DNA from: a virus
DNA: 41,503 nucleotides
IMG/VR virus record: IMGVR_UViG_3300005441_000004
Coordinates: 1 to 41,503 of that record
Reading direction: 5' to 3' (one strand)
The notes beneath the pieces were generated by a model, which saw nothing but the letters and a program-made list of their open reading frames with translations, made no database searches and was not told where the DNA came from. Numbering within the stretch: position 1 is the first letter of the stretch; each line of letters begins with the position of its first letter. Shown one piece after another: positions 3,056-32,200 of this stretch. The position numbers and the translations under genes are program-made.

Positions 3056-3646
3056 TCAGCCGAGGCGCTGCGCGATCCCGGCCAGAGTCCCGAATGCTGC
3101 GCCGATCTGCGTAGCGAGCGCGTTCGCGTCGTTGATCGCCTGCAGGAACGGACCGGTGGCGTTCTCGAGCTCGGAGTGCCCGTCTCCGAGCGCGGCCTGC
3201 ACCTCCTGGACTTTGCTGGTCAAGTCGTTGACGATCTCCTGAGTCATGCCGATTGCGTTCTTGCTCAGGCTCAGCTCCCGCAGGCGTGCGGCCTCTTCTT
3301 GAGCGGACATTCCGGTCGTGTTCCTTTCACTGGTCTCGCGCGGGCCGGGTGACGTCGCGCGCTTCTTCCGGCGCTGCGCCTCGGCGAGCACCGCGTCAGG
3401 GTGGGTCTGGTCCGGCAGCGGCGCGTCGCGTACGCGGTCCCGGTCACCGGAGAACAGGTCCGCGAGTTCCTGCGCGGCCTCGGCGTCGGGGCCGGACATC
3501 GTGACGTCGAAGCCCTGGCCGATCAGGTCGATCGTGGTGTCGTCTGCCTCGACCTCGGACAGCTCGCGCAGGAAGTCGTCGGGGTCGGTGTAGTCCTCGC
3601 CCCCGCCACCCTCCTCAGGGCGGCGGGGTTCCGGCGGCTCGGTCAC
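3056..3646 (-). CDS. Hypothetical protein (196 aa). The acidic N-terminus carries an RsdA-like anti-sigma motif (tentative). The C-terminus is helical.
   Basis: Track ORF. GTGA overlap with the upstream gene. Motif LSEVEADDTTIDLIGQG. Confidence 0.6.
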   Translation of the reverse strand: MTEPPEPRRPEEGGGGEDYTDPDDFLRELSEVEADDTTIDLIGQGFDVTMSGPDAEAAQELADLFSGDRDRVRDAPLPDQTHPDAVLAEAQRRKKRATSPGPRETSERNTTGMSAQEEAARLRELSLSKNAIGMTQEIVNDLTSKVQEVQAALGDGHSELENATGPFLQAINDANALATQIGAAFGTLAGIAQRLG

Positions 3647-3934: not shown

Positions 3935-3964
3935 AGTATGGCACACCTAGCACAACTCGCACAA
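3935..3964 (-). promoter_or_regulatory. Promoter P1: TTGTGC-N18-CATACT
   Basis: The minus strand reads TTGTGCgagttgtgctaggtgtgcCATACT. Member of the six-copy family. Confidence 0.6.
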
Positions 3965-3971
3965 CCCCCGG

Positions 3972-4676
3972 CTACCAGCGATCAGGCATCCCCGAGGTGT
4001 TGCCCGGCACGCCGCGGGCGCCGACGCCCCAGTGGTACCAGAGCCAGGTCACCTCCGGGACGTGCCGGAACACCCCGCCCGCCGCCCGGCACCGCAGCGT
4101 GAACTCGTGGTCCTCGCCGCGGCGCTGCCCGTCGACTTCCCGGCCGTCCTCCTCGAACTGCGCGAACCCGCCGGCCTCGCGCGCCAGCTCGGTGCGCACC
4201 AGCGTGGTGATGGTGGTCTGGCACGGGTCCTCGTCGTTCCACTGGCTGAACGCCTTCTCCCCCAGGAACGCCGGCCCGTCGAGCCGCTCGCCGCCGGGGT
4301 AGCAGATCTGGAACCGCGACCAGACGTAGTCCGCCTGGTGCTCGAGCGCGGCCGAGAAGAGGGCGTAGAGGTGCGTCGGGAGCATCTCGTCGTCGTCGTC
4401 GAGGAACGCCACCCACTCGGTATCCACCTGCATCAGCCCGGCGTGCCGGGTTTTCGCCGCCCCGGCGTGCATCATGTCCGGTACCGCGAGGTACCGCATG
4501 ATGAAGCCGGGGAACCGGGCCAGGAACTCCGACCGTCGGTCGCCCAAGTACTTCATCGACGCCAGCACGCTCTCTCGTTGCCGGGCCTGGATGATCGCCC
4601 GCGGCGGGATGGTGGGCGTGACGACGGTGATGCCCGGCTGCAGCGCCGGAAGCACCTCCTCCAGCGACCCGCTCAC
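3972..4676 (-). CDS. Glycosyltransferase, family 2-like GT-A fold (234 aa)
   Basis: ITVVTPTIPPR N-terminal strand and FLDDDD (DxD motif). GTGA overlap with the methyltransferase stop. Confidence 0.75.
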   Translation of the reverse strand: MSGSLEEVLPALQPGITVVTPTIPPRAIIQARQRESVLASMKYLGDRRSEFLARFPGFIMRYLAVPDMMHAGAAKTRHAGLMQVDTEWVAFLDDDDEMLPTHLYALFSAALEHQADYVWSRFQICYPGGERLDGPAFLGEKAFSQWNDEDPCQTTITTLVRTELAREAGGFAQFEEDGREVDGQRRGEDHEFTLRCRAAGGVFRHVPEVTWLWYHWGVGARGVPGNTSGMPDRW

Positions 4677-5551
4677 AGATCCGCCGCCAGGATCTTGAAC
4701 CCCTTCGCCAGGTGATTACGGATAGCGCGCTGAGCGTCGATTTCCACCAGCGGCCACGGCCCGCCCGGACGGTGCCCGGCAGAGATCAGCGCGTACGCCA
4801 TCGCGTCCACGCCGGCGTCTTCCTGCGCGTCCTCCGGCACGGCCACGGCTTCGTCGGTCGTTAGGCCGTGATGTTCCGAGCGGGCGGCTTCCACGATCGC
4901 CTGCGTCATCTCGGCCGCGTCAGCTTCCACCTCGTCATCGCGCACGACCTCGAAAAGGCAGACCTGAGACCACTCGACGCGGTGGTACTGCCGGGCCTCG
5001 AAGCCTGCGCCTTCGAACAGCCTCGCGTACCCTTCGGTGTCCCAGGCCCACGCGTGGTTCCACTCGTGCCGCACCGGCGTCTCGTTCCACGGCGAGCTGG
5101 CCACCACGAACTTCACGCTGTCCCGCTGCGCCAGCTTGGCGAGGAAGCCGTGCGGGTCAGCCAAGTGCTCGAGCACCTCGGTCAGCACCACCACCGGGCC
5201 GAGCGGAGTTTCGTCGAGGGTGGCCGAGACGTTGCGCTCGTAGACGGTCACGCCGCGCACGCGCCGGGCGTACTCGGCGTCGGCGCGGATGATCTCGTAG
5301 CCGTAGGAGACGTCCTTGAGCCCGTACTCCAGCAGCGAAAGCAGCGCGCCGTCGCCGGCGCCGAGGTCCACGACGTAGCCGGAGGCGTCGTTGGCCGCTT
5401 CCGAGGCCAGCGCCGCGGCGGCCTGGAGCCGGGCGGTGTGCGCGTTCGACGGCGCCTCGAGGTGGTTGCAGTGGGCGCGGTCGCGCCACCACTCCGGGTC
5501 CAGCCACTCCGGCGGGTTCCCGGGGTCGAACAGGCGGTGTTCCATGGTCAT
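4673..5551 (-). CDS. Class I SAM-dependent methyltransferase (292 aa)
   Basis: VVDLGAGDGALL (motif I) and VLTEVLEHL. ATGA overlap at 5548-5551. An alternative ATG is at 5545. The 373-aa track version is rejected. Confidence 0.75.
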   Translation of the reverse strand: MTMEHRLFDPGNPPEWLDPEWWRDRAHCNHLEAPSNAHTARLQAAAALASEAANDASGYVVDLGAGDGALLSLLEYGLKDVSYGYEIIRADAEYARRVRGVTVYERNVSATLDETPLGPVVVLTEVLEHLADPHGFLAKLAQRDSVKFVVASSPWNETPVRHEWNHAWAWDTEGYARLFEGAGFEARQYHRVEWSQVCLFEVVRDDEVEADAAEMTQAIVEAARSEHHGLTTDEAVAVPEDAQEDAGVDAMAYALISAGHRPGGPWPLVEIDAQRAIRNHLAKGFKILAADL

Positions 5552-5784
5552 CCTCTCGTGCAGGCCCGGCGGTCGCGCCGGGTGTAGCGAACAGCTTCGG
5601 GGTTCTTCGGTACCGGCACAGCCACACCTGCGCGGCGGTGCGCCCGGCAGAGGCCCTCCCAGGTCATCCCCAGGCGGGCGGCGATGGCCTCGCCGGTCAG
5701 GCCGAACTCCGCCAGCTCGGCGGTGTCGGCGACCACGTCGGCGCGGCGGCGCTTGCGCAGGCGGTTCTCCAGCGTCTGCGTCAC
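5548..5784 (-). CDS. Small helix-turn-helix DNA-binding protein (78 aa)
   Basis: GTG 5784 in a GTGA overlap. TAELAEFGLTGEAIAARLGMTWEGLCRAHRRAG looks like an HTH. Confidence 0.55.
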   Translation of the reverse strand: MTQTLENRLRKRRRADVVADTAELAEFGLTGEAIAARLGMTWEGLCRAHRRAGVAVPVPKNPEAVRYTRRDRRACTRG

Positions 5785-5885
5785 GGTTCGCCACCCCCGC
5801 GGCCGATCGCGCAGGCCATGATCAAGATGATCCCGCAGACGATGATCAGGCCCACCCACCACGGGTAGGGCACGTCGCCGTTCAC
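5781..5885 (-). CDS. 34-aa single-TM peptide
   Basis: GTGA overlaps at both ends. Product is VNGDVPYPWWVGLIIVCGIILIMACAIGRGGGEP. Below the track size cutoff. Confidence 0.45.
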   Translation of the reverse strand: MNGDVPYPWWVGLIIVCGIILIMACAIGRGGGEP

Positions 5886-5983
5886 CGCCGGCCCCCGAAC
5901 CACCGCGCGGCGGCCAGCGTCGCCAGCATGACGAGGACCCCTACGGTTGAGCCGTTGCAGAAACCGATCCAGTAGTCGCTCAC
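5882..5983 (-). CDS. 33-aa single-TM peptide
   Basis: GTGA overlaps at both ends. Product is VSDYWIGFCNGSTVGVLVMLATLAAARWFGGRR. Confidence 0.45.
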   Translation of the reverse strand: MSDYWIGFCNGSTVGVLVMLATLAAARWFGGRR

Positions 5984-6693
5984 TGTGATCCCTTCCGGTA
6001 GAGCTCGGCGTTGCGGCCGGCCAGGTCCCGGGCGGCGCCGTCGTGCCAGAGCTCGCGCAGCACGTACCCGCTCGGGCCCATCGTGCCGCGCAGGCCACGC
6101 GCCAAGGTGTCGAGGAACGCGGTGTCCTCGTAGCCCCAGCCCTCGTAGCGTTCGTCCAGCCCGCCCGCTGCCTCGAACGCCGCACGCCACACCCCCAGCA
6201 CGCCCGGGCAGGGCGCGGGGTGGACGTGCCAGTCCGCGGCCTCCAGCGGCAGCACGGTGCCGTGCAGGATCAACCGGGTGGCCGCCTCGGTGGCGTAGGC
6301 GACGCGGTCGTAGATCCGGGCGAAGGCGTACCCCCGCAACTGGTGCGTGGCCCACTCGATCGCCCGAGCGTCCGGCACGTGGTCGGCGCCGAAGAGCAGG
6401 AAGTGCTCGCCGTGGGCGTGCTTCGCGGCGTCGTTGAGCGCGCGGGCGACCGAGAAGGGGATCAGGTCGTAAAGCGGTGGCGGCCGGAAGTCGCGGTCCA
6501 CCACCGGCTCAATCACACGCTCATACTCGCGCTTGCCGAACAGGGGGTCGTGGCCCACCACGATCTCGTCCACCAGGCCGCGGTTGCGCATGGCGTCCCA
6601 CTGCTTCGAGCACCACCGCCACACCTCGGCGCGATGCTTGCCCGCGGCGTCGAGGGTCGCCCCGAACGGCACGAGCACGCTGATTTTCGTCAC
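5980..6693 (-). CDS. Glycosyltransferase, GT-A fold (237 aa)
   Basis: GTG 6693 after GAAGGTGG. ISVLVPF strand and a GWGYEDTAF motif of the galactosyltransferase-like C-terminal type. Confidence 0.65.
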   Translation of the reverse strand: MTKISVLVPFGATLDAAGKHRAEVWRWCSKQWDAMRNRGLVDEIVVGHDPLFGKREYERVIEPVVDRDFRPPPLYDLIPFSVARALNDAAKHAHGEHFLLFGADHVPDARAIEWATHQLRGYAFARIYDRVAYATEAATRLILHGTVLPLEAADWHVHPAPCPGVLGVWRAAFEAAGGLDERYEGWGYEDTAFLDTLARGLRGTMGPSGYVLRELWHDGAARDLAGRNAELYRKGSQ

Positions 6694-6722
6694 TGGTCTG
6701 TCCACCTTCTGTCCGGGAATTG

Positions 6723-7760
6723 TCAGTCGAGCAGAGCTTTTTCCCACTCGACGGCGTGCGCCTCGAGGGTGTTGGCCTGGGCCCAGGTGAGGGCGAGCGA
6801 AGCCAGTTCCCAGCGCCAGTCCGGCCGCTCGAGGACGTGTTCGAGATCGGCCGCCCACTCGCTGGTGAACTGGATGCCGGGTACGTCAGTGGCCCGGTAC
6901 GGCCCGACGCCGCTGGCGAAGATCGCCATCCCCCGCGCGGCCAGCTCCTTCAGGCGAAGGTCGGACTTCGAGCGGTTGAACAGGTCGTCGGCGAGCGGGG
7001 CGAGCCCGATGTGCCCGGCAAGGGTGGGGATGTAGCGGTCCACGCCCTCGATCCACGGCACCTGCGCGACGCGGGCGTACACCGTGCTCGCCAGCCGCGG
7101 TTCGTCAAGCCGGGCGATCGCCGTGCGCAGCCGGTCCGCGTACGGGGCGCCGACGATCCGGACCTTGAAGTCCGTACGCTCACGCAGCAGCTTCCGCAGC
7201 GGCACGGCCACCTCGTCGAAGTCCCGGCGGTGGGTGTCGCTCCCGGCCCAGGTGATCGTCGGGACCTGCAGCCCCACCAGATCGGGGACCCTGTCCACCA
7301 CGAACCGCTCAGGCACGTAGTTCGGGACCACGCGGACGGTGTCCGGGTCGACGTACTTGCGCAGGGTGCGTACCCGAGTGGCCAGGTGTTCACCGGTGAC
7401 GATGACCCGGTCCGCCTGCCCGATCGTCTCGGTGAGCCGGTACCGCCGCGCGGGGTCGGCCATCATCTCGTGCGCGGGGTTGTGCTCGGGCACGGCGAAC
7501 AGATCGTCGTCGAGTTCCACCACGATCCGCGGCCGCGCGCTCTCCGGCAGCGTCAGCATCTTCTCGATCAGGTGCGTGGTCGTGGACTCGGTCGGGCGCT
7601 GGATGACCACGACGTCGCTCATCGCGGCGGTAGCCAGCCCGACCCGGCGGTCCCACCGCGTCTCGTGGCCGAGGCGCTTGAGCACCCGCGCCGGCTCGGC
7701 GCAGCGGTAGAAGGTGCAGGCCGAGGCGGTGTCCCCGGACCAGAACAGGATGCGGGCCAT
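6723..7760 (-). CDS. Glycosyltransferase, GT-B fold, GT4-like (345 aa)
   Basis: Track ORF. The C-terminal KELAARGMAIFASGVGPY resembles the GT-B nucleotide-sugar binding region. Confidence 0.65.
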   Translation of the reverse strand: MARILFWSGDTASACTFYRCAEPARVLKRLGHETRWDRRVGLATAAMSDVVVIQRPTESTTTHLIEKMLTLPESARPRIVVELDDDLFAVPEHNPAHEMMADPARRYRLTETIGQADRVIVTGEHLATRVRTLRKYVDPDTVRVVPNYVPERFVVDRVPDLVGLQVPTITWAGSDTHRRDFDEVAVPLRKLLRERTDFKVRIVGAPYADRLRTAIARLDEPRLASTVYARVAQVPWIEGVDRYIPTLAGHIGLAPLADDLFNRSKSDLRLKELAARGMAIFASGVGPYRATDVPGIQFTSEWAADLEHVLERPDWRWELASLALTWAQANTLEAHAVEWEKALLD

Positions 7761-7954
7761 CAGAACAAATCTCCCTCGTCACCGGTCACCGAGTCCCACA
7801 CCTGCTTGCCGTCGCGCTCGACCACCTGCACCTCGGTGTCCCCGGCCGCATCGAAGTCGTTGCCGGAACTGGGGGTAAGGGTCTCCTGCTCCATCGCCTG
7901 GGCGACGGCGCTCTTGATGTCGTCCGCCTCGACGTGGTGCACCTGTGTCATCAT
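7760..7954 (-). CDS. Small, very acidic protein (64 aa)
   Basis: ATG 7954. An alternative GTG at 7984 gives 74 aa. TGATG overlap with the GT-B start. Rich in D and E. Confidence 0.45.
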   Translation of the reverse strand: MMTQVHHVEADDIKSAVAQAMEQETLTPSSGNDFDAAGDTEVQVVERDGKQVWDSVTGDEGDLF

Positions 7955-7976
7955 TTTGGCCAACACGACTACGTAT

Positions 7977-8579
7977 TCAGCCACGGGCCCGGACCTCGTC
8001 TCGGTGGTGGCGGCCGGTGGGCGCTTCGTCGTAGTCGAGGTCCGGGCCCGACACGGGGATTCCGCCCGGCGGGGTGTGGTGCTGGGGCTGGAACTCGTGG
8101 GTGAGCAGGTCGTAGGGCTGGGTGTCCTCGAACAGCGCACGCTGGATCTGGGCGTTGTACGCGGACAGATGCTGCGTCCCCCAGTCCGCCGGGAGTACGC
8201 CGCGGAACAGGCCGCGGGGAGCGTCGAACCCGATCAGCGCGTCCAGCCGGGCGGTCTCCGCGGCACACGCCTGCGCCACGACGGTGTCGGCGTCGGCGAT
8301 CGGTGTGTGCACGGCGGTGATCTCCAGCTCTTCGGTGCTCGGGCGCCGCCGGGCGCGCGGGGTGGCCGGGTAGATCAGGTCTCCGAGGGCGACGCAGGTG
8401 ATCATGGCCAGCGCCATCAGTACCACGCCCATCACCGCCGCCTCCCCGAGCGGGATGCGCCCGGCCGCGGCGGGGTAGGCGCGGAAGGCGAGGTAGCCGA
8501 AGCAGGTCAGCAGCGGCAGCACCACGCGCGCGATGCGGGTGGCCAGCGGCGCCGGGGTGATGGGGTCGAAGGTGATCAC
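7977..8579 (-). CDS. Membrane protein (200 aa) with two N-terminal TM segments and a soluble C-terminal domain
   Basis: GTG 8579 in a GTGA overlap. The longer 270-aa track form reads through promoter P2. Confidence 0.55.
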   Translation of the reverse strand: MITFDPITPAPLATRIARVVLPLLTCFGYLAFRAYPAAAGRIPLGEAAVMGVVLMALAMITCVALGDLIYPATPRARRRPSTEELEITAVHTPIADADTVVAQACAAETARLDALIGFDAPRGLFRGVLPADWGTQHLSAYNAQIQRALFEDTQPYDLLTHEFQPQHHTPPGGIPVSGPDLDYDEAPTGRHHRDEVRARG

Positions 8580-8752
8580 TGGTCGGCCTTTCCGAGGATG
8601 TTGGCGGTACCGGCGACGACGAGGGTAAACGCGATCGGGGCCAGCAGCGCGAAGGTGGCGGGTTTGCCGAGGGCGAGCACCATCGTGGGCAGCTGCGGGA
8701 CCGCGATCGCGGTGAGCAGCAGGGCCAGGGAATAGAGCGCTCGCTTCAGCAT
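8576..8752 (-). CDS. Small membrane protein (58 aa, two TM), probably translated from a leaderless mRNA
   Basis: ATG 8752 begins 7 nt downstream of the P2 -10 hexamer, and there is no SD. Confidence 0.55.
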   Translation of the reverse strand: MLKRALYSLALLLTAIAVPQLPTMVLALGKPATFALLAPIAFTLVVAGTANILGKADQ

Positions 8753-9186
8753 GCCGTCGAGTCTGGCACACTTGGCACACTTTGCACAAGAGGCTTTTCC
8801 GGGACGCCTTGCGCGAACAGGGTTCCGCCGAAGATGCCGCTGCGCTCGTGCGCGACCGCGTCGGCGAAGCACGCCCGCGCGACTGGGCACCGCGCGCACA
8901 CCGCCTTCGCCGCGTCGTGCCGACGCGCGGTGGCCGCGGCAGTGGTGCCGTAAAGCTTGGACTCCGGCGGATCGAACAGGTACGCGATGTCCGGGTAGCA
9001 GGCCGCGCCGGCGAGGACGTCGTCCGCGGGCAGCGTGCCGAGGTGGGCGTAGGCGGGCTGGGGCCTGCGTACTGCGCGCAGCCCGGCGCGCGCCCGCCGC
9101 TGCGTCTCGCGCTGGCACGGCGTGCAGCTGGGCTTCCCGGCGGGGATGACGTGGCGCCCGGACCGGCACGGCCGTGCGCCGCTCAT
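8746..9186 (-). CDS. whiB: WhiB-family transcription regulator (146 aa) with a Cys-containing N-terminal extension
   Basis: AACYPD...AKAVCARCPVARACFADAV...GIFGG is the classic WhiB four-Cys and GIWGG-type pattern. ATG 9186. Confidence 0.8.
   Translation of the reverse strand: MSGARPCRSGRHVIPAGKPSCTPCQRETQRRARAGLRAVRRPQPAYAHLGTLPADDVLAGAACYPDIAYLFDPPESKLYGTTAAATARRHDAAKAVCARCPVARACFADAVAHERSGIFGGTLFAQGVPEKPLVQSVPSVPDSTAC
8760..8789 (-). promoter_or_regulatory. Promoter P2: TTGTGC-N18-CAGACT
   Basis: The minus strand reads TTGTGCaaagtgtgccaagtgtgcCAGACT. It lies inside the 3' end of whiB. Confidence 0.6.
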
Positions 9187-9190
9187 CCGG

Positions 9191-9688
9191 CTACCCACGG
9201 CGGCGCTCCAGCTGCGCGAGTTCGAAGTCCATCGAGAGCGGGTCGGGGTTGCCGAGGTTGACCACGTGGAAGTAGAGGGCGTGCCGGACGGCGTCGGTGG
9301 TGTGCGGCCGGCCCTGATCTGGCCAGAGACCGGCCGCAGTCAACCGCGCATCGACGGCCCACCCTTTTGCCGCCGCGGCGTTGCGCAGCTTAACCCGACC
9401 CGGGAACGCCGCCTCGAGCGCGCCGAGGGTGTCGCGGGCGCGCTGCCCAGCCGCCGCGGTGCTCGAGCGGCCGGCGCGGCGGCTGACCACGAACCGCTCG
9501 GCGGCGATCCACCACGGACCAGCAGGTGCCGCGAACGACTTGATCCACTGGTCGAGCGCGTAGCCGATCTCGCCCGGTTCCAGCGGCGCGCCGAGGTGGG
9601 CGCGCAGCCGGTAACCGCGCTCGGGCGTGTACTCGACGGCGGCCAGGCCGGTCGTGCCGCCGGGGTCGACTCCGATCACAAGGCTCAT
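9191..9688 (-). CDS. RuvC-like Holliday junction resolvase (165 aa)
   Basis: VIGVDPGGTTG, AAERF and HTTDAVRHAL catalytic-type motifs. ATGA overlap at 9685-9688. Confidence 0.75.
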   Translation of the reverse strand: MSLVIGVDPGGTTGLAAVEYTPERGYRLRAHLGAPLEPGEIGYALDQWIKSFAAPAGPWWIAAERFVVSRRAGRSSTAAAGQRARDTLGALEAAFPGRVKLRNAAAAKGWAVDARLTAAGLWPDQGRPHTTDAVRHALYFHVVNLGNPDPLSMDFELAQLERRRG

Positions 9689-10026
9689 CGCTTCCACCCC
9701 AGTTCGACGAGTTTTGCCGCCAACTCGCGCGTACGCCGCGGATCTGGGAAGGAAGGCAGCGCGCGAGCGATGTCTGCGGCGAGCCGGCTGATGAGCAGCT
9801 CGGTGTCGTGATCGTTGACCGGGATGTGGCGCACGACCTCCGCGTCAAGCCGGTCGGAGTAGAACGCGGTGCTGTGCTTGCCCGGGTTGGCCGGGTCGTC
9901 CAGGCCTATCGAGACGCGGCCGTCGTCGCGGGGGCTGATTCGGTCGATACGCCAGATGGCGCCGGACTTCAGCGTGAGCATGTCGCCCACCGTGTACGTG
10001 GCGCTCTGGGTGTGCGTGGTCCTCAT
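9685..10026 (-). CDS. Hypothetical protein (113 aa)
   Basis: Track ORF. ATGA overlap with the upstream small gene. Confidence 0.55.
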   Translation of the reverse strand: MRTTHTQSATYTVGDMLTLKSGAIWRIDRISPRDDGRVSIGLDDPANPGKHSTAFYSDRLDAEVVRHIPVNDHDTELLISRLAADIARALPSFPDPRRTRELAAKLVELGWKR

Positions 10027-10169
10027 CGCGTGTGGCTCCAGCTCTCTCGGGCCTGTTGCGCGCAGGCGGGGAACGCGCCGCCCCAGATCGCCCCGGCCGC
10101 CGCGAGCGCGGCCACCCAGACGAGGCAGCCGCGGTTGCGGCGAACGAGGCGACGAGGGTGCTTGCTCAT
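10023..10169 (-). CDS. Small membrane or secreted protein (48 aa), leaderless
   Basis: ATG 10169 begins 6 nt after the P3 -10 hexamer. Hydrophobic CLVWVAALAAAGAIWGGAF. Confidence 0.5.
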   Translation of the reverse strand: MSKHPRRLVRRNRGCLVWVAALAAAGAIWGGAFPACAQQARESWSHTR

Positions 10170-10175
10170 GCCCCG

Positions 10176-10205
10176 AGTCTCACACACCTTGCACAACTCG
10201 CACAA
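10176..10205 (-). promoter_or_regulatory. Promoter P3: TTGTGC-N18-GAGACT
   Basis: The minus strand reads TTGTGCgagttgtgcaaggtgtgtGAGACT. Confidence 0.6.
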
Positions 10206-14075: not shown

Positions 14076-14105
14076 AGTCTTGCATACTTCGCATGATTCG
14101 CACAA
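14076..14105 (-). promoter_or_regulatory. Promoter P4: TTGTGC-N18-AAGACT
   Basis: The minus strand reads TTGTGCgaatcatgcgaagtatgcAAGACT. It starts 3 nt after the upstream TAG. Confidence 0.55.
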
Positions 14106-14559: not shown

Positions 14560-15407
14560 TACGTCACCGTCCCCGGGCAGCCCACGCCGTCGTCCGGACC
14601 GTCCTGGTTCGGCCGGTAAAACTGGCAAAAGTAGCACTCGTGGTGATCCGGACTGCGCTCCACCTGCGCCCACATCGCACCCTGCGCGTAGACCGGGGCG
14701 GCCGCGATCGCCGCGGCGAGGCGCTTGCGGCGCACGGTGTCGTCGGCGATCTCGTGCAGAAGCTGCGCCATCTGGGCGTCCATCGCATGCTCCCAGACGT
14801 AGAGCCCGGCGAGGCTGGAGCCGGTGCGCGGCCAGGCCAGCAGCGCAATCCGCCGCACCGGCAAGCCCTCTTGCATGTAGCCCAGGCCGTAGAGCCCGAG
14901 CTGGCCGACGTACTTGCGCGGCGGCCCGCCGGGGCTCTTGACGATGTCCATCGACGTCGCGCCGAGCAGCTTGTGGTCGAGCATGCACGCCTCCCACGCG
15001 TCGTAGAGATCGCCGGTGCCGGGGTGCTCGGCGAAGACGCCGCCGGGGTTGACGCGCCGCTCGGGCAGGTAGCGCACCGCGCCGAGCTGAGTGTTCTCCC
15101 AGCGGAACATCGCATCCAGCTCGGCGTGCCCGGCCGTGCCCATGAAGCTGGGCCAGGGGTCGACGACGTGGTTGGTGGCCTCGATGCCGAGCAGCTTGCC
15201 CACCACCTGCCGGTCGCACTCCACCCCCAGCTCGCTGGGCCCGAGGTGCCGCTGCAGCGAGCGCGGCCGGCGCGCGGAGTAGCGGCGCAGGATGTCCGCC
15301 ATCCGCACCGCGGTGGCCGCCGCCCATTCGGTATTGCCCTGGGTGGCGGCCGGGCGCGGACCGGGCTGGGCGAGGTAGGCGTCCAGCGTGGCCGGGGGCG
15401 CGGTCAC
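14559..15407 (-). CDS. Cas4/RecB-family PD-(D/E)XK exonuclease with a 4-Cys cluster (282 aa)
   Basis: N-terminal Cys (GVECDRQ). GDLYD...MLDHK nuclease motifs. C-terminal CYFCQF...GC. GTG 15407 in a GTGA overlap, with an alternative GTG at 15419. Confidence 0.75.
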   Translation of the reverse strand: MTAPPATLDAYLAQPGPRPAATQGNTEWAAATAVRMADILRRYSARRPRSLQRHLGPSELGVECDRQVVGKLLGIEATNHVVDPWPSFMGTAGHAELDAMFRWENTQLGAVRYLPERRVNPGGVFAEHPGTGDLYDAWEACMLDHKLLGATSMDIVKSPGGPPRKYVGQLGLYGLGYMQEGLPVRRIALLAWPRTGSSLAGLYVWEHAMDAQMAQLLHEIADDTVRRKRLAAAIAAAPVYAQGAMWAQVERSPDHHECYFCQFYRPNQDGPDDGVGCPGTVT

Positions 15408-17294: not shown

Positions 17295-17633
17295 ATGTCA
17301 CGGCCAAGCGACATCCACTACATGAACGAAAGGGCATCTTACGTGAACGACCCCAACACCGTCCAGCGGGACGGCGACGCAACCCTAGATGATGTAGTCG
17401 CGTGGCTGGAGTTCGAAGGCATCGACTGCCTTACCCACGCCTACGTGACCAGCCCCACCGCCTACGCGATTAAGCACACAGCGGAGCGCGCGCTCGGACT
17501 CTACGTTTCCGAGCGCCTCATGATCGACGCGGCGAAGCGCTACGGCTATCCGACGATCACCAGTGACGCAGGCACGCACGTCGGCATGGACAACGACGGC
17601 TACGCCGACACGCACAAGCGAGCCTGTCGGTGA
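17295..17633 (+). CDS. Hypothetical protein (112 aa), start uncertain
   Basis: Track ORF. Alternative starts are ATG 17322 and GTG 17343 (after GAAAGGG). GTGA overlap with the replicase start. Confidence 0.5.
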   Translation: MSRPSDIHYMNERASYVNDPNTVQRDGDATLDDVVAWLEFEGIDCLTHAYVTSPTAYAIKHTAERALGLYVSERLMIDAAKRYGYPTITSDAGTHVGMDNDGYADTHKRACR

Positions 17634-20600
17634 CCGCCCCGCAGCGCCCGGAGGCGGCGCTCTTCGAGGGCGCCATGGCCACGATCGCCGCCGGCTACCT
17701 GGTCCGGATGGTCGAGATCGGCTGGGACTCCGCCAAGGGCAAGAAGAAACTGGTCCGCAACCCCGGCGAGAACTGGCAGGCCGGCCCCCAGCTGAGCCAG
17801 GCGCAGGTCATGGAAGCCATCCGCGCCGGCTGCAACGCCTACCTCTACCGACTCCCGGACGGCGTCTGGGTGGTCGACGTCGATGCCCACGAGATGATGC
17901 TGACGATCGGCGAACGGCTCGGCGCCCCGGATGTCGTCACCCCGCGCGGCGGCGCCCACTGGCTGGTCGACGCCCAGCTGGACCCCGTCGCCGGAATCGA
18001 CACCGAACCGCGCCAGCTCTACGGGCCCGGCTCGTTCTACGAGATCCCCGGCCGCGGCATGGTCGCCTACACCGGCACCGTCCCGGCCGGCCCGCGTCAC
18101 CTGCCGGACAACCTGCCGCGCAAAACAGCGAAGCCTGCCCAGCCCGCCGCGCCGGGCGAAACCGGCGCGTTGGCGGACTACCTGGCCCGGCGGGACCTGC
18201 GGGCCATGCCCCGGGGGCGGGCGAACCAGCGCGCCGCCGAGCTACTGGCCGCGATCGCCAACGGCCCGGAGACCGGCGCGGCCGCGCGGCTGGGGATCAA
18301 CAACGCCGCGGCGTTCCTCGGCGGCCTGCTGCACACCGGCCTGCTCGAGCACGGCGCCGCGGTGGACGCCCTGGAGTCGGCGTGCGAGCTGCGCTGGGGC
18401 ACCTGCTCCGAAGCCGATCGCCAGTGGATCCAGGAAGGCCTGTCCTTCGGGGTGGCCAACCCGGTCGAGATCTACGAGCCGGAGGAACGCGCCGCCGAGC
18501 AAGCCGCCGCGGTGATGCACGCCCCTTTCGACCCCGCGAGCCCTTTCGGTTCTGAGCCCTTCACCTGGGCCGGAGCCACCGCACTGGACATGGCCGACGC
18601 GCTGCTGGTCCGCGTCGCCCCGGCGCTGCGGGTGATGTGGTCGGACGTCACCACCGGCAAACCGGCCTGCCTCACCCGCTCCACCCGCGGCCACTGGTCC
18701 TACGTCGCCGACGGGTTCAAGTGGGCCGCGCTGCGCCTGCTCGACACCATGCCCCGCGGCGTCCGCCCGGAAACCAAAGAGCGCTCCGAGTGGACAGAGG
18801 AGAACTGGGCTCACCACCGCCGGGACCGCTTCACCCGCGAACTCACTGAGGTCGTCGGCCTGGCCGAAGCTCGCGTCCGCCACCCCGATCACGGGCTGGT
18901 CGTCACTCCCGCCCAAGTCGAGGGCCCGCGCGAAGTCGTGTGGTGCGCCGGCACGCCATGGCGCCTCGGCTCGGTCATCGACGTCGCTCCGATGCCGGCC
19001 GGCACCCCGCACATGCACTCCATCCCCTTCGCCCCCGCCGACGTCCCCACCCCCGCGTGGAACCGGTTCGTCAAGGCGATGTGGCCCGAGGAAGACGTGG
19101 CCGAGTGGGCGCTGCGCGTGCTCGCCGTCGGGTTCACCGGCGATTCGGACGCCGTCATGCCCGTACTGCACGGGCCGACCGGGCGCGGCAAGTCGAAGTT
19201 CATGGGGCGCGTGCTCGCCCTGCTCGGCGGCTACGGCACCGCCGCCAGCAAGGCCTTGATCGTGCCCACCGCCGGCAATGTGGACGTCGCGAAGGCCCAC
19301 CTACAGGGCGTCCGGCTCGCGTGGCTGGATGAGGCACCTGGCACCGGCAAAGCCTCGGTGGAGGCGCTCAAGGACATCACCGGCGGCGGGGATGTTTACG
19401 CCGCGGCGAAGTACCGGGCGCCGATCGTCTTCAAGAGCACCCACACCCTCGTGCTCACCATGAACGACGCGCCCGAGATCCACGACGAAGCCGTCGCCCG
19501 TCGCGTCCGACTCATCCCGTGCTTCGGCGACCCGGAGGAGCTGGGCCACGCGTTCGACGAACTCGCCCCCGCCTGGGATCGGGAGGCGCCCGGCGTCCTG
19601 GCCGCCATGCTCCAGCGCGCCGCAGCCTACCTCGTCGACTGGCGCACCATCGGAGAGGACCACGCACCCGCTACTGTCCGTGAGATCACGGCCCGGATCA
19701 TCGGCGAGCAGGACGTCATCGGGATGTGGCTGGCGCAGTGCACGCGGCCCAGCGAAGAGGGGATGCGCAGCGGCGATCTCTACGCCAACTTCCGCGACTT
19801 CGCCCGGCAGTTCTCGGAGTGGGAAAAGCGGGTGCCGGCGTCCAACGTGTGGTCCGCGCGGGTGGACCGAGCGGGTTACCCGGTCTTCAAGCGCCCGAAG
19901 AACATTCCGTACCGCGCGCTGGCTCTGGCCAACGGAGGGGACGTTTCGTGGGCCGTCGCACCCTCCCCGGTTACGGGGGTGAGGGGGGTTGGTGATGGGG
20001 TGAAGCCCGACCCGTCACCCGCCGAGACCAGCGGCAACGCGCCAAATGTTACTAGTGTTATGACCTCTCAATATACTATTACGGGAGGAGTAGTAGAAAG
20101 TAGGGGGGAGGGAGACAATGGAAAAACCGAGTTAACCACCCCTCCCTCATCACCCGCTCCCGCGCTCCTCAGCTCGGCTCTCGCGGACCAGCCGGACCCC
20201 GGCTCAGTGATCAACTGCGCGTGGTGCGCAGGGCCTGCGGAGCTCACGAAGTCGATCAAGTTCAAGGTCCACAAGACCCCCGCCGGCGACCGGTGCGACG
20301 GCTCCCAGCAGACACCCCCGGGGGTGCTTACGCTCCGTGAGCGGAAGGCGAAGGAACGCGACGCGATCAAGCTCGGCAAGATCACCGCCGCGGCCGGGCC
20401 GACGCTGACCCTGCCCGCCGCCATGCGCCGCGGCGAAGAACCCCGCCAAGTCACCGCCGCCGAAGCGCTGGCCATCGGGCGTGCCGCCATCGCCCGCAAC
20501 GGCGGCCGGATCGCCGTGGACTGCGAGACCAACGCCCGGCCGCTCTGGCACCCCGAGTACGCCACCCAGACCATCCAGCTTGGCGACTGGGCCGAAGCGA

Positions 20601-22246
20601 TCGACCTCGACGCGTCCGACCCCGAGCACCGCGCCGTCGCGGCCACCCTTATCGCCGAGGCGGCCGAGCTCGAGGCCTTCAGCTACACCGCGGACCTGGT
20701 GCCGCTGGCACGCCTCGGCATCGCCGAGTACGACGCGATGTTGGCCAAGTGCGTCGATGTCGCCACGATCGTTAAGCTCACCGATCCGGCCCTGACCGCC
20801 AACGGCGACGGCCTCAAAGAGACCTCGGCCGCCGTGCTCGGCGACGCCGCGCTGTCCCCGGCCGCCGAAGACGCCCGCAAGGCACTCGGCGACGCAGCCG
20901 GCTGGATCTGGAAGCTCGAGCACGACACCCCCGATGAACGCAACGGGTGGCTCCAGGTGGACCGCCGGTGCGCCACCATGGCCCGCTACGCCATGGCCGA
21001 CGTCCTGGACTGCTCGGCCCTGCGCCTCAAGCTGCCCCAGCCAGACCCGGCCGTCATGGCCCGCGAGATCGTCGCTGAGCGCGTCGTAGCCAAGCTTCCC
21101 TACCTCGGGCTCGCCATCGACGGCCCGGCCGTCAGGGCGCAACTGAGCGACCGGGAACCCCGCGCCGCGGCCAAGCTCACCCGGATCCGCGAGCTCGGGG
21201 TGGGGAACCCGGACTCCCCGAAGCAGGTCACCGAGCGCCTGCGCGCCCTCGGCGCGATCCTCCCGCAGACCAAGGGCGGCAACGACTCCGGCGCGAAAGA
21301 CGTGCTCGAGAAGCTGCAGCACGCTCCGGGCGAACTCGGCGAGCTGGCTAAAACGATCATGGGCTGGCGCGACGACGCCACCGTGCTCAAGAACATGATC
21401 CGCCCCTGGGCCCGCTCCACCGAGCACGGCGACTGCCGCACCTACCCGACGATCTACACCCTCGGCGCCGACACCGGCCGCATGAGCTGCGTCCGCCCGA
21501 ACCTGCAGCAAGTGGCCCGCGAGGGAGGCCTGCGCGAGTGCATCGCCGCCGACCCCGGCATGCTCTTCATCGCCGCGGACTTCTCCTCGGTGGAGGTTCG
21601 CGTCGCCGCCTACGTCTCCGGCGACCGCAACCTCATCGCGATGATCAACGGGGCCATCACGTGCCCGACATGCCAGGCCGGCACGACCTGCGTGCACCAC
21701 GACCTGCACGCTATGATCGCCAACCAGGCGTACGGGCCGGGGTTCACGAAGGCGAACCGCTACAACGTCAAGCGCGTCGTCTTCGGCCGGCTCTACGGCG
21801 GCAGCGCGCCGACACTGGCCGCCCAGACGGGCCTCGACATCCCGATGGTGGACCGGCTCGTGGCCATCCTCGACGCCCTCGCCCCCCAGCTGGCCGCGTG
21901 GTCCGCGCAGGTCCGCCAGGCTGTCAAGAACGGGCTGCGCGAGTACCGGACGTACTCCGGACGGGTGATTCACCTCGACCCCCGCTTGCCGCACAAGGCC
22001 CCGAACTACATCATTCAGGGCACCGCCCGCGAGCTGCTTGTGGACGCGCTCATCCACTGGGAGCAAGGCCCGTACGCCAGGGGTGTCGTGCTCCCTGTGC
22101 ACGACGAGATCGTGGCCATGGTCCCCACCGAGCAGGCCCCCGCGGCAACCCGGTTCCTGGTGCAGTGCATGACCACCCAGCTCGGCCCGGTGCCGATCAC
22201 GGTGGAGGCCGACGAACCGGCCGAGGTCTGGCAGAGTGCCGCGTGA
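17630..22246 (+). CDS. Fused replicase (1538 aa): AEP PrimPol domain, D5/P4-type SF3 helicase, 3'-5' exonuclease and family-A DNA polymerase
   Basis: PrimPol: VVDVDAHE and TPRGGAHW. Helicase: HGPTGRGKSKF (Walker A) and WLDEAPG (Walker B). Exonuclease: IAVDCETN. PolA: DFSSVEVRVAAY (motif A), KRVVFGRLYGGS (motif B), PVHDEIV (motif C). Single uninterrupted track ORF. Confidence 0.85.
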   Translation: MTAPQRPEAALFEGAMATIAAGYLVRMVEIGWDSAKGKKKLVRNPGENWQAGPQLSQAQVMEAIRAGCNAYLYRLPDGVWVVDVDAHEMMLTIGERLGAPDVVTPRGGAHWLVDAQLDPVAGIDTEPRQLYGPGSFYEIPGRGMVAYTGTVPAGPRHLPDNLPRKTAKPAQPAAPGETGALADYLARRDLRAMPRGRANQRAAELLAAIANGPETGAAARLGINNAAAFLGGLLHTGLLEHGAAVDALESACELRWGTCSEADRQWIQEGLSFGVANPVEIYEPEERAAEQAAAVMHAPFDPASPFGSEPFTWAGATALDMADALLVRVAPALRVMWSDVTTGKPACLTRSTRGHWSYVADGFKWAALRLLDTMPRGVRPETKERSEWTEENWAHHRRDRFTRELTEVVGLAEARVRHPDHGLVVTPAQVEGPREVVWCAGTPWRLGSVIDVAPMPAGTPHMHSIPFAPADVPTPAWNRFVKAMWPEEDVAEWALRVLAVGFTGDSDAVMPVLHGPTGRGKSKFMGRVLALLGGYGTAASKALIVPTAGNVDVAKAHLQGVRLAWLDEAPGTGKASVEALKDITGGGDVYAAAKYRAPIVFKSTHTLVLTMNDAPEIHDEAVARRVRLIPCFGDPEELGHAFDELAPAWDREAPGVLAAMLQRAAAYLVDWRTIGEDHAPATVREITARIIGEQDVIGMWLAQCTRPSEEGMRSGDLYANFRDFARQFSEWEKRVPASNVWSARVDRAGYPVFKRPKNIPYRALALANGGDVSWAVAPSPVTGVRGVGDGVKPDPSPAETSGNAPNVTSVMTSQYTITGGVVESRGEGDNGKTELTTPPSSPAPALLSSALADQPDPGSVINCAWCAGPAELTKSIKFKVHKTPAGDRCDGSQQTPPGVLTLRERKAKERDAIKLGKITAAAGPTLTLPAAMRRGEEPRQVTAAEALAIGRAAIARNGGRIAVDCETNARPLWHPEYATQTIQLGDWAEAIDLDASDPEHRAVAATLIAEAAELEAFSYTADLVPLARLGIAEYDAMLAKCVDVATIVKLTDPALTANGDGLKETSAAVLGDAALSPAAEDARKALGDAAGWIWKLEHDTPDERNGWLQVDRRCATMARYAMADVLDCSALRLKLPQPDPAVMAREIVAERVVAKLPYLGLAIDGPAVRAQLSDREPRAAAKLTRIRELGVGNPDSPKQVTERLRALGAILPQTKGGNDSGAKDVLEKLQHAPGELGELAKTIMGWRDDATVLKNMIRPWARSTEHGDCRTYPTIYTLGADTGRMSCVRPNLQQVAREGGLRECIAADPGMLFIAADFSSVEVRVAAYVSGDRNLIAMINGAITCPTCQAGTTCVHHDLHAMIANQAYGPGFTKANRYNVKRVVFGRLYGGSAPTLAAQTGLDIPMVDRLVAILDALAPQLAAWSAQVRQAVKNGLREYRTYSGRVIHLDPRLPHKAPNYIIQGTARELLVDALIHWEQGPYARGVVLPVHDEIVAMVPTEQAPAATRFLVQCMTTQLGPVPITVEADEPAEVWQSAA

Positions 22247-31816: not shown

Positions 31817-32200
31817 ATGACCCTCGGATACGCCCCCGCCCGGGCCCGCAAGCACCTCGACGACATGATCACTGACGCGCCGTTCATGCAGTGGCACGTC
31901 GGCGACCCGGGCGCGGCCGGCACCGCGAACCCCGCGACGAACACCACCCGCGTCGACACCACCGGCAAGTGGGCGGCCGCGAGCACCGCGGGCGCCACCA
32001 CGACCAAGAGCACCAACGCCGCGATCACGGTGACCAACGTCCCCGCCTCCGAGGACTACACCCACGTCAGCTTCTGGACCCTGGCCAGCGGCGGCGCCTA
32101 CACCGGCTCGGCCCTGGTCACCGCCAACGCCCTCACCGCCGGCGACAACGTCACCATTGCCTCCGGCGGCATCGCCCTCACCGCGGCGAACGCGAGCTGA
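31817..32200 (+). CDS. Thr/Ala-rich hypothetical structural protein (127 aa)
   Basis: Track ORF in the neck-gene run. Confidence 0.5.
   Translation: MTLGYAPARARKHLDDMITDAPFMQWHVGDPGAAGTANPATNTTRVDTTGKWAAASTAGATTTKSTNAAITVTNVPASEDYTHVSFWTLASGGAYTGSALVTANALTAGDNVTIASGGIALTAANAS

Follow-up and report, generated by a model that had tools for sequence, protein, structure and literature searches.

A module of three glycosyltransferases and a methyltransferase in an uncultured actinophage clade, with a possible role in virion glycosylation

The virus genome considered here is the IMG/VR record IMGVR_UViG_3300005441_000004, positions 1 to 41,503 (41,503 nt; called the window in the following). On its minus strand, ten consecutive open reading frames (ORFs) at 3972-8752 include four enzymes: a GT4-type glycosyltransferase (GT) with GT-B fold, a GT with GT-A fold, a class I S-adenosylmethionine (SAM) methyltransferase (MTase) and a GT2-family enzyme (GT2). 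We propose, tentatively, that this four-enzyme module glycosylates the phage's own virion proteins. It would be expressed as one promoter-to-promoter unit during lytic growth. The enzymes would draw on host nucleotide sugars and SAM, add sugars successively to a cytoplasmic acceptor and methylate a sugar hydroxyl, which would result in a short methylated O-linked oligosaccharide. The acceptor would be one or several virion proteins of the phage itself, modified before or during assembly, as in the mycobacteriophages Che8, Corndog and Myrna. We infer the O-methylation of the sugar, the order of action and the acceptor. Stepwise synthesis of a methylated oligosaccharide was already suggested in the initial annotation of this DNA, and we keep it as a reasonable inference.

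A virion target is favoured for several reasons. The composition of the cassette matches that of the validated Che8 and Corndog cassettes, its GT2 is linked by family to Che8 gp108 and is physically coupled to the MTase, and in relatives the enzymes are placed recurrently in packaging/head operons. Further, the enzymes are core genes of the phage clade (kept down to 45% identity of the GT-B) and are under purifying selection, in a phage without lysogeny functions. They are also predicted to be soluble, and no Gtr-type or base-modifying alternatives were detected. As neither an integrase nor a repressor was found, the benefit of the module must fall in lytic growth.

The promoter-bounded unit and its enzymes

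The genes of the unit, from the first to the last, and the two 30-mers at its borders are:

8760..8789, minus strand: upstream 30-mer (TTGTGC / CAGACT), inside the 3' end of the WhiB gene
8576..8752, minus strand: TM58, 58 aa with two transmembrane (TM) segments, first gene of the unit (ORF and TM prediction)
7977..8579, minus strand: TM200, 200-aa membrane protein with two TM segments (homolog alignment and AlphaFold2 model)
7760..7984, minus strand: acidic ORF, 74 aa (64 aa from ATG 7954), variable passenger
6723..7760, minus strand: GT-B glycosyltransferase, 345 aa, GT4-like (phrog_7162, AlphaFold2 and Foldseek)
5980..6693, minus strand: GT-A glycosyltransferase, 237 aa (Pfam Glyco_transf_7C)
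5882..5983, minus strand: tm33, 33-aa ORF with a single TM segment, coding status uncertain
5781..5885, minus strand: tm34, 34-aa peptide with a single TM segment (dN/dS 0.12)
5548..5784, minus strand: HTH78, 78-aa basic protein (weak HTH_23 match)
4673..5551, minus strand: class I SAM methyltransferase, 292 aa, or 290 aa from 5545 (Pfam Methyltransf_23)
3972..4676, minus strand: GT2-family GT-A glycosyltransferase, 234 aa, last gene of the unit (Glycos_transf_2 and phrog_14775)
3935..3964, minus strand: downstream 30-mer, in the 71-nt gap after the GT2, where the next unit (genes for 85 and 196 aa) starts

All ten leftward ORFs of the initial annotation exist, and so do its seven start/stop overlaps on the minus strand (GTGA at 8576-8579, 5980-5983, 5882-5885, 5781-5784 and 4673-4676, ATGA at 5548-5551, TGATG at 7758-7762). 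The near-absence of spacing described there holds for these tight junctions, but not for the 29 nt between the GT-B and GT-A genes and the 71 nt between the GT2 and the next gene, which are the only gaps. Upstream the block is not isolated, as the stop codon of the WhiB gene overlaps the first ATG by 7 nt. Since junctions of -1, -4 or -8 occur in the gene calls throughout the whole leftward block, overlaps are the normal packing style of this genome, and tight coupling by itself does not mark out the ten genes. Independent gene callers on three identical metagenome contigs called 8 or 9 of the ten ORFs and never tm33. The acidic ORF, annotated with 64 aa, exists, but these callers start it at GTG 7984, which gives 74 aa; the start of the GT-A was corrected to GTG 6693 (237 aa).

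A 30-nt motif delimits the block. In it, TTGTGC and NA(G/T)ACT are separated by a spacer of 18 nt that contains (T/A)TGC three times. Four copies were found in the window, all on the minus strand and only in the leftward block (14076-14105, 10176-10205, 8760-8789 and 3935-3964), as compared to none in 100 shuffles, the pattern itself having been derived from those four copies. The copies at 8760-8789 and 3935-3964 flank the ten-gene block exactly. The -10-like hexamer CAGACT of the upstream copy ends 7 nt ahead of the start codon at 8752, and this suggests a leaderless transcript. In the related loci L004 and L013 the upstream copy is equally placed with respect to the 58-aa homolog (1697-1726 and 9253-9282, respectively), and the downstream copy likewise follows the GT2 (6201-6230 and 14578-14607); altogether, the position of the 30-mer is conserved in L001-L004 and L013. 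The 30-mer is a putative promoter, and its positional conservation supports the view that the block is a discrete transcription unit. The TGC repeats in the spacer could serve as an operator. The copy ending at 10205 precedes a leaderless-looking 48-aa TM ORF (10023-10169). In the unit that follows the module, the gene at 3056-3646 (minus strand) encodes a 196-aa acidic protein with a weak match to the anti-sigma factor RsdA (Pfam 0.007, below cutoff); it is kept in the locus L059 (34%), again directly after the GT2.

The predicted GT-B, GT-A, class I MTase and GT2 folds were borne out by profile searches and by a confident model of the GT-B. Also the motifs pointed out in the initial annotation, GWGYEDTAF, VVDLGAGDG and FLDDDD, are present, with core residues that do not vary in the clade alignments (E-G-W-G-Y-E-D in the GT-A, D-x-G-A-G-D-G in the MTase and F-x-D-x-D-D in the GT2). 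The GT-B matches phrog_7162 (5.7e-38). Its AlphaFold2 model, built from 41 homologs, has a predicted local distance difference test score (pLDDT) of 93.9 and a predicted template modelling score (pTM) of 0.93, and in a Foldseek search of PDB it retrieved GlgM, MshA, BshA, PimA, SenB, SdgB, TarM and PglA with E values from 1e-12 to 1e-9. According to this model the GT-B has a GT4-like fold. The GT-A matches Pfam Glyco_transf_7C (1.7e-6, 28 bits; cutoff 23), its C-terminal motif YEGWGYED is of the Gal/GalNAc-T type, and its profile hit beta4GalT7 in PDB (0.0013) over this C-terminal motif.

The MTase matches Pfam Methyltransf_23 (9.4e-10, 38.9 bits; cutoff 27). The nearest PDB entry in the profile search is the O-methyltransferase UbiG (0.008), and NCBIfam places the enzyme as MetW/UbiG-like. 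In line with the initial annotation, which saw no DNA-methylase motifs, there is no DNA methyltransferase among its Pfam or PDB-profile matches. A role as DNA methylase was therefore rejected, and its resemblance to O-methyltransferases makes it a putative sugar O-methyltransferase. The C-terminal approximately 65 aa of the MTase (4673-4870) form an acidic, hypervariable extension on an otherwise 92%-conserved enzyme; L004 and L014, whose enzymes have 227 and 221 aa, respectively, lack the extension, and L013 (274 aa) has a different one.

The GT2, in which FLDDDD provides the DxD motif, matches Pfam Glycos_transf_2 (1.6e-8, 35.1 bits; cutoff 23.3) and, over its full length, phrog_14775 (1e-26). 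In PDB its profile retrieved PglI (4.5e-8) and weakly TarP (0.004) and TarS, and in NCBIfam it matched weakly EpsD, TuaG and WcaA. PDB searches with single sequences of the four enzymes were uninformative, and the profile versions for the MTase, GT-A and GT2 led to generic neighbours only. No TM segments were predicted in any of the four enzymes, which are thus all expected to be soluble and cytoplasmic. Comparison of the window with L004 gave ratios of nonsynonymous to synonymous substitution rates (dN/dS) of 0.19 for the MTase, 0.26 for the GT-A, 0.28 for the GT2 and 0.48 for the GT-B. These values show purifying selection on the enzymes, as do those of HTH78 (0.27) and tm34 (0.12).

Conservation and genomic neighbourhood

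We found 96 homologs of the GT-B, approximately 53 of which (at least 44% identity) belong to a clade in which many contigs have a length of 40.5-41.9 kb. Clade members with GT-B identities of 75, 59, 45 and 44% keep one backbone in the order WhiB, small TM protein, ~200-aa protein, GT-B, GT-A, variable small ORFs, MTase and GT2. Outside this clade, a 54-kb viral contig (L019/L060) harbours the enzymes on one strand, in the same order and just upstream of TerL. The gene order in L060 is 50-aa 2-TM ORF, GT-B, two small ORFs, GT-A, MTase, GT2, helix-turn-helix (HTH) gene, TerL, portal, MuF and capsid. Its MTase homolog is 50% identical and adjoins the GT-A and the GT2; in L059, as in L060, nothing lies between the GT-A and MTase genes. 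Since both the clade and L060 keep the GT-B, GT-A, MTase and GT2, the conserved module consists of these four enzymes, which are core genes of an uncultured phage clade with genomes of approximately 41 kb.

The initial annotation had described a ten-gene operon, but a functional unit of all ten genes could not be upheld: L060 and L059 have no tm33, tm34 or HTH78 between the GT-A and MTase genes, L004 lacks the acidic ORF, and TM200 is a predicted non-enzyme. Thus, we rejected the idea that the ten ORFs are one functional machine, because the passengers vary between relatives. By these comparisons the six small ORFs (four membrane proteins, the acidic ORF and the HTH protein) are co-transcribed passengers or clade-specific accessories and do not define the module.

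TM58 (TM segments 8-29 and 31-54) is 95% identical in L004, with a dN/dS of 0.41 that is based on 6 changes only. It has no Pfam or PHROG family match; in L013, L014 and L011 this place is taken by an ORF of 60-70 aa, too short for any family assignment, which is a candidate counterpart by position. TM200 has an N-terminal 2-TM anchor followed by an indel-rich, mostly disordered tail with the conserved motifs THEFxPQHHTPP and TGRHHR. Its AlphaFold2 model is of low confidence (pLDDT 66, with helices at 12-33 and 44-72 and the tail below 50). TM200 (dN/dS 0.54 against L004) has 26 homologs, all from the same phage clade, and no match was found in Pfam, PHROG, NCBIfam or PADLOC. Judging from the model, TM200 is not an enzyme. 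Homology of TM200 to the membrane protein gp2 of the Streptomyces phage Zuko was considered and rejected (hhalign probability 1.6%).

The acidic ORF, with 16 D+E as compared to 4 K+R, has no family match; in the 75%-identical relative L004, where it is missing, TM200 ends 10 nt before the GT-B. The short ORF tm33 is 70% identical in L004 (dN/dS 0.68 from 18 changes) and was not found in L013, L014 or L059. A 91% identity in L004, the dN/dS of 0.12 and a homolog in L013 with a PWWVGL motif indicate that tm34 is a real, clade-specific gene; it was not found in L060 or L059. HTH78 is 83% identical in L004 (dN/dS 0.27) and is possibly a regulator, its match to Pfam HTH_23 (0.011) being below cutoff. 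It was not found between the GT-A and the MTase in L060 or L059. A scan for PADLOC defence families gave no matches.

Some loci carry parts of the module. Only the GT-B and GT-A are present in L062-L064, and the 39.7-kb contig L058 (IMGVR_UViG_3300028831_000290) has at 7998-9492 only the GT-A and GT2, 176 nt apart, with no MTase between them and no GT-B within 8 kb upstream. These partial sets show that the composition of the module is plastic, with natural gain or loss of components. The neighbours within 8 kb of the GT2 were surveyed at 48 viral loci having this type of GT2. A GT of the Zuko gp108 type was present in 27 of the loci, a short-chain dehydrogenase/reductase (SDR) enzyme in 19 and a GT-B also in 19, and the MTase and GT-A types of the window in 7 and 6, respectively.

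In seven Amycolatopsis loci the GT-B and GT-A are wedged between a TerS-like HTH gene and TerL, and the same order (HTH, GT-B, GT-A, TerL) exists in L062-L064. The loci L076-L084 represent chromosomal phage-like elements of Amycolatopsis. In eight genomes these have the GT-B between HTH and TerL (for example L077, 6615-11467), and in seven of the eight the GT-A follows, L082 having the GT-B alone. The corresponding Actinomadura, Acrocarpospora, Streptomyces and Frankiales loci have no GT upstream of TerL, and most of them keep the HTH gene (L072 and L074 have TerL only). Relatives whose TerL, portal, MuF and capsid are homologous carry the enzymes at the head of the packaging/head operon and on the same strand. 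Thus, as far as can be judged from gene order, the enzymes repeatedly travel with the same family of packaging/head genes, often inside that operon.

Possible targets of the module

Virion O-glycosylation was shown experimentally for three mycobacteriophages, Che8, Corndog and Myrna (Freeman et al. 2023, cited through PMC11600133 and PMC12363180). Corndog and the other members of Cluster O lack an integrase; between their portal and protease genes they harbour three GT genes in tandem and one for an O-methyltransferase (PMC4351075). According to PMC11600133, which cites Freeman et al. 2023, these enzymes modify capsid and tail tube. Che8 genes 108-110 act likewise, and PMC12363180 describes Che8 gp110 and Corndog gp38 as the GTs that are essential for capsid glycosylation. 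In actinophages, GT and methyltransferase genes have already been read as virion glycosylation genes, a standard inference in the field (PMC13313380). The initial annotation could not match the combination to a described system in a phage without lysogeny module. The integrase-free Corndog and Cluster O phages with their O-methyltransferase and three GTs are such a match (PMC4351075 and PMC11600133). Thus, three GTs and one MTase in a lytic actinophage are already described, and the window cassette is a non-orthologous variant.

Our profile scan revealed that Che8 gp108 is a GT2 (phrog_14775, 1.2e-36) fused to a TylF-type O-methyltransferase, that Che8 gp109 and Corndog gp37 belong to phrog_1721, and that Che8 gp110 and Corndog gp38 are GT25 enzymes (phrog_854). 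Che8 and Corndog have, like the window, a soluble set of three GT activities and one SAM methyltransferase in an actinobacteriophage, and Corndog, which has no integrase, can be strictly lytic, like the window phage. The GT domain of Che8 gp108 and the GT2 of the window share phrog_14775 at a modest hhalign E value of 9e-5. The MTase and GT2 genes of the window are joined by a 4-nt overlap and those of Che8 gp108 by fusion, but the two MTases belong to different families. The GT-A of the window has a weak match (6.6e-4, residues 78-193) to phrog_1721, the family of Che8 gp109 and Corndog gp37. Profile comparison of the GT-A with Che8 gp109 gave an E value of 0.009 and a hhalign probability of 4.6%, and a tblastn search with Corndog gp37 reached the window GT-A with an E value of 0.006 in the motif region only. 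The Corndog GT genes are located among head/packaging genes, as in the relatives of the window, and the cassette of Che8 itself is in a non-structural region, so that the location in the leftward block is not evidence against a virion target. There is no BLAST-level similarity of the window enzymes to those of Che8 or Corndog.

The closest cultured homologs are annotated but uncharacterised genes of the Streptomyces phages Zuko and KimJongPhill and of the 194-kb Arthrobacter phages Racecar, Mimi, Talia1610 and Atuin. The GT2 is 46-50% identical to Zuko gp106 (50%) and KimJongPhill gp107, and 36% identical to Racecar gp177; for the GT-B the identity is 27% with Zuko gp5 and 25% with Racecar gp174. 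Zuko has GT, MTase and GT2 in the same local order as the window (genes 108-107-106), a GT-B beside an SDR sugar enzyme just upstream of the terminase (order SDR, GT-B, HTH, terminase), and a tail tube homologous to that of the window (31%). However, the GT gp108 and the MTase gp107 of Zuko are not detectably orthologous to the GT-A and MTase of the window, the MTases being similar at the level of the Rossmann fold only (hhalign E 3e-5). Zuko further has a nucleoside diphosphate (NDP)-sugar SDR (gp4) and a 2-oxoglutarate (2OG)-Fe(II) oxygenase (gp109), while the window has no matches to either of them or to the gp108-type GT. The GT genes of Zuko are split between the two genome ends, and Zuko-type genomes have 82-194 kb as compared to 41 kb of the window. 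The window-type GT-A and MTase are instead common to L060, L059, L062-L064 and the Amycolatopsis loci. Zuko gp4 (L007, 1319-2380) was deposited as UDP-glucose dehydrogenase and resembles an NDP-sugar 4,6-dehydratase-like SDR (TIGR01181, 8.7e-57, below cutoff). Zuko gp109 (L006, 3823-4470), a hypothetical protein in the deposited record, belongs to the 2OG-Fe(II) oxygenases of the peptide- or protein-modifying YhhC/FlmC type; its gene stands beside the GT-MT-GT2 trio and recurs in 5 of the 48 related viral loci.

Several observations weigh against glycosylation of virion proteins. The MTase of the window belongs to Methyltransf_23, whereas those of Che8 and Corndog belong to TylF / Methyltransf_24 / phrog_6608. 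No GT25 was found in the scans of the cassette (phrog_854/Glyco_transf_25), by tblastn of Che8 gp110 and Corndog gp38 against the window at E below 0.1, or in 60+ related loci; the window has a GT4-type GT-B where Che8 and Corndog have a GT25. The structures nearest to the GT-B and GT2 act on small molecules, lipids and teichoic acids as often as on proteins. The unit shares its putative promoter motif with leftward genes of replication type and would be co-transcribed with membrane proteins, and genes located between late genes can equally be morons.

Also the search for an acceptor spoke against a Che8-like mechanism. The four validated substrates end in Gly/Asp-Ser (...KTGS and ...SDGS in Che8, ...LVGS and ...KGDS in Corndog). 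The capsid protein of the window does not have such an end and terminates in a hydrophobic strand, ...VEIIT; the capsid proteins of 18 clade homologs terminate in Thr, Ser or Ala, three of them in Ala. One capsid protein ending in Ala (P0139) is encoded on a contig of 41,837 bp, and a GT-B homolog (P0029) on an equally long contig, possibly the same one. The tail tube of the window ends in ...YTQR, and in this phage and its metagenome relatives the last tail-tube residue is Arg or Lys; the Zuko capsid and tail tube end in ...LEVLA and ...YIDQT, respectively. GT-positive and GT-negative prophage-like loci among the relatives did not differ in Ser/Thr content or termini of capsid and tail tube. 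At the termini of fibre, tail tube, tail assembly chaperone (TAC) and a 147-aa protein in the metagenome relatives, no cassette-linked signature was found.

The initial annotation had named the Thr/Ala-rich product of 31817-32200 (plus strand, 127 aa) as candidate substrate. This protein is a Gp80-type fibre (Pfam PF23140, 3.7e-9; phrog_240 'head protein'), and its ...A-S end is family-wide and not linked to the cassette: it is common to distant family members, and one close relative ends in ...NAA. The fibre gene is located between neck genes and tail tube, an unusual place for a siphovirus fibre. Since the virion proteins compared contain no acceptor signature, the acceptor cannot be named from the sequence. 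It is tempting to speculate, with still somewhat more reserve than for the virion target itself, that the module represents a second, independently assembled lineage of phage virion glycosylation. This would be initiated by a GT4 instead of a GT25 and would follow an acceptor rule other than a C-terminal Ser (for example internal sites, or a protein of the fibre or neck). A widespread soil actinophage clade with genomes of approximately 41 kb would have it as a core trait, and so would related phages of Amycolatopsis, Streptomyces and Arthrobacter.

The chlorovirus PBCV-1 offers a parallel. Its multidomain protein A064R, which combines two rhamnosyltransferase domains with one sugar methyltransferase domain, participates in capsid glycosylation. 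As proposed here, virus-coded cytoplasmic GTs and a sugar O-methyltransferase put a methylated oligosaccharide on the virus's own capsid without host secretory glycosylation. However, PBCV-1 is a eukaryotic giant virus with atypical N-linked glycans, so the likeness is one of logic, and no sequence kinship is expected.

The target could also be the host envelope, the main rival explanation, which we regard as rather unlikely but worth weighing closely. In this case a glycolipid or a precursor linked to a lipid, for example a wall polymer on polyprenyl phosphate or a lipid of the phosphatidylinositol mannoside type, would be modified by the GTs and the MTase on the inner side of the membrane, the glycan would be exported by host transporters, and receptor masking would lead to superinfection exclusion or to less sticking of progeny to cells and debris. 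The small membrane proteins would tether or organise the enzymes. Indeed, the unit encodes four of them, TM58 and TM200 upstream of the GT-B are kept across the clade, and the distant L060 also has a 50-aa 2-TM ORF directly upstream of its GT-B and a 94-aa 2-TM protein that aligns weakly to TM200 (hhalign 82%, E 1e-5). The structural neighbours fit as well, with PimA, TarM and PglA for the GT-B and, for the GT2, PglI as the nearest, weakly TarP/TarS, and EpsD, TuaG and WcaA. Soluble TarM, TarS and TarP glycosylate wall teichoic acid in the cytoplasm before its export. Moreover, the Amycolatopsis elements are chromosomal, and lysogenic conversion is conceivable there. The initial annotation took the membrane proteins as pointing to the envelope. 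However, no GtrA flippase-like protein, membrane-anchored GtrB or GT-C/multi-TM GtrC was found in the Pfam and PHROG scans, the membrane ORFs of the unit have only one or two TM segments, and the four enzymes have none. In addition, cassettes from outside the clade lack tm33, tm34 and HTH78, the GT pair of L077 and L062 has no TM protein beside it, and TM200 has no enzyme-like fold. Gtr and TarP systems, in which phage-encoded GTs modify host-surface glycans and to which the GT2 is related by its weak profile matches to TarP and TarS, belong to temperate phages and act in lysogens, whereas the window phage has no lysogeny module, and a new wall polymer would surface slowly within one lytic cycle. 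Finally, the genes of the relatives lie inside the packaging/head operon and not near attachment or immunity regions.

Still less probable, in our opinion, is another cytoplasmic target, either a host protein (in takeover or counter-defence) or a small molecule such as an anti-phage metabolite inactivated by glycosylation and methylation. The closest structures of the GT-B, namely GlgM, MshA, BshA and SenB, all have small molecules as acceptors, the MTase comes closest to O-methyltransferases that also act on small molecules (UbiG), no acceptor signature was found in the virion, and the wider lineage has filamentous actinomycetes that produce antibiotics as its hosts. However, three GTs and an MTase imply an oligosaccharide, while inactivation of a small molecule usually takes one transfer, and the GT-A and GT2 types present here are typical of glycan chain building. 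Such a target would leave the persistent packaging/head linkage in the relatives unexplained, and no defence or counter-defence family was matched. We hardly expect hypermodification of DNA, by which GTs would glycosylate a modified base against restriction, as in T4 (glucosylated hydroxymethylcytosine) or in TET/GT systems. T4-type DNA glucosyltransferases do have the GT-B fold, a cyanophage 'DNA alpha-GT' is at rank 44 of the viral fold list (E 1e-7), and Zuko-type cassettes include a 2OG-Fe(II) oxygenase. The latter resembles the peptide- or protein-modifying YhhC/FlmC types, however, and is absent from the window. As noted in the initial annotation, nucleotide-modifying enzymes are not apparent: Pfam, PHROG and precomputed annotations of the window revealed no dCMP/dUMP hydroxymethylase, thymidylate-synthase-like protein, TET/JBP or DNA methyltransferase, the MTase resembles O-methyltransferases, and three GTs with a sugar-type MTase correspond to no known DNA-modification set. 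Thus, modification of DNA is unlikely, but since two early proteins of 352 and 387 aa are without annotation, its exclusion is not absolute. The order of targets in the initial annotation, with the virion before the host envelope and DNA last, agrees with our weighing of the evidence.

The phage, its probable host and the meaning of the module

The window has a G+C content of 70%. An exact direct repeat of 120 bp is present at both ends (1-120 and 41384-41503), and therefore the window is an assembled circular genome of 41,383 bp. The join of the circle lies within a gene for a 429-aa tail protein. In a megablast search, neither the cassette nor the structural genes (20 kb) matched any of 50,697 deposited phages, so that no close DNA relative was found there, and the identical GT-B protein was found on three independent metagenome contigs of 37.7-41.5 kb (JGI, ENA and Logan). 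By gene content the phage is a siphovirus, with genes for terminase, portal, MuF, scaffold, capsid, connectors, Gp80-like fibre, tail tube, chaperones, tape measure and Dit. The lysis cassette consists of an M15_4 peptidase and a holin. The leftward block carries an exonuclease, an SNF2 helicase and WhiB, and a primase-PolA fusion is encoded rightward. The latter is a single ORF of 1538 aa (17630-22246, plus strand), in which a primase/helicase-type region (DUF5906) and a DNA polymerase of family A are fused; it is kept as one gene of 1538-1594 aa in the clade relatives.

No integrase, no repressor-sized gene and no tRNAs were seen in the gene annotation of the window, which bears out the statement of the initial annotation that there is no visible lysogeny module. 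The presence of WhiB and of TerL relatives in actinomycete genomes indicates that the hosts are actinomycetes. Full-length terminase relatives with 33-39% identity are present in Actinomadura, Acrocarpospora, Streptomyces, Amycolatopsis, Frankiales and Rhodococcus genomes; this terminase profile was used because a scan of cellular genomes with the capsid profile retrieved nothing. The host is probably a non-mycolate filamentous actinomycete, as the M15_4 peptidase is the sole lysin detected in the lysis cassette, where LysB was not specifically searched for. A search of the representative library with the tail tube gave 173 relatives. Among the structural genes, 32203-33522 (plus strand) encodes a 439-aa virion protein resembling a three-part fusion. 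Its N-terminus is a phrog_2804 'virion structural protein' domain, aa 183-270 contain four tandem repeats of approximately 21 aa (...Q[A/S][F/Y]G[A/G]LGGGVTA...), and its C-terminal part resembles separate proteins of 148-153 aa at the tail-terminator position in L062 and L077.

The proposed function is of interest for several reasons. To our knowledge, glycosylation of phage particles was shown only for a few mycobacteriophages and is discussed mainly as antibody shielding in phage therapy. With the cassette described here, putative glycosylation of particles would include a large uncultured clade as well as phages of Streptomyces, Amycolatopsis and Arthrobacter, and it would have a different enzymology and a different acceptor rule. 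Zuko, as the cultured carrier of the nearest homologs, provides a testable handle. Should the host envelope turn out to be the target, remodelling of host surface glycans by a strictly lytic phage would be an unusual finding. If, on the other hand, the virion proteins are modified and the cassette is a fixed and selected trait of the whole clade, glycan coats of phage particles would be more widespread than thought and would have arisen more than once. They would then need an environmental role, for example in stability, in adhesion to soil or cell-surface matrices, or in protection from proteases and host surface defences. Last but not least, a true second lineage would mean that glycosylation is common in soil phages and has an ecological role unrelated to mammalian antibodies.

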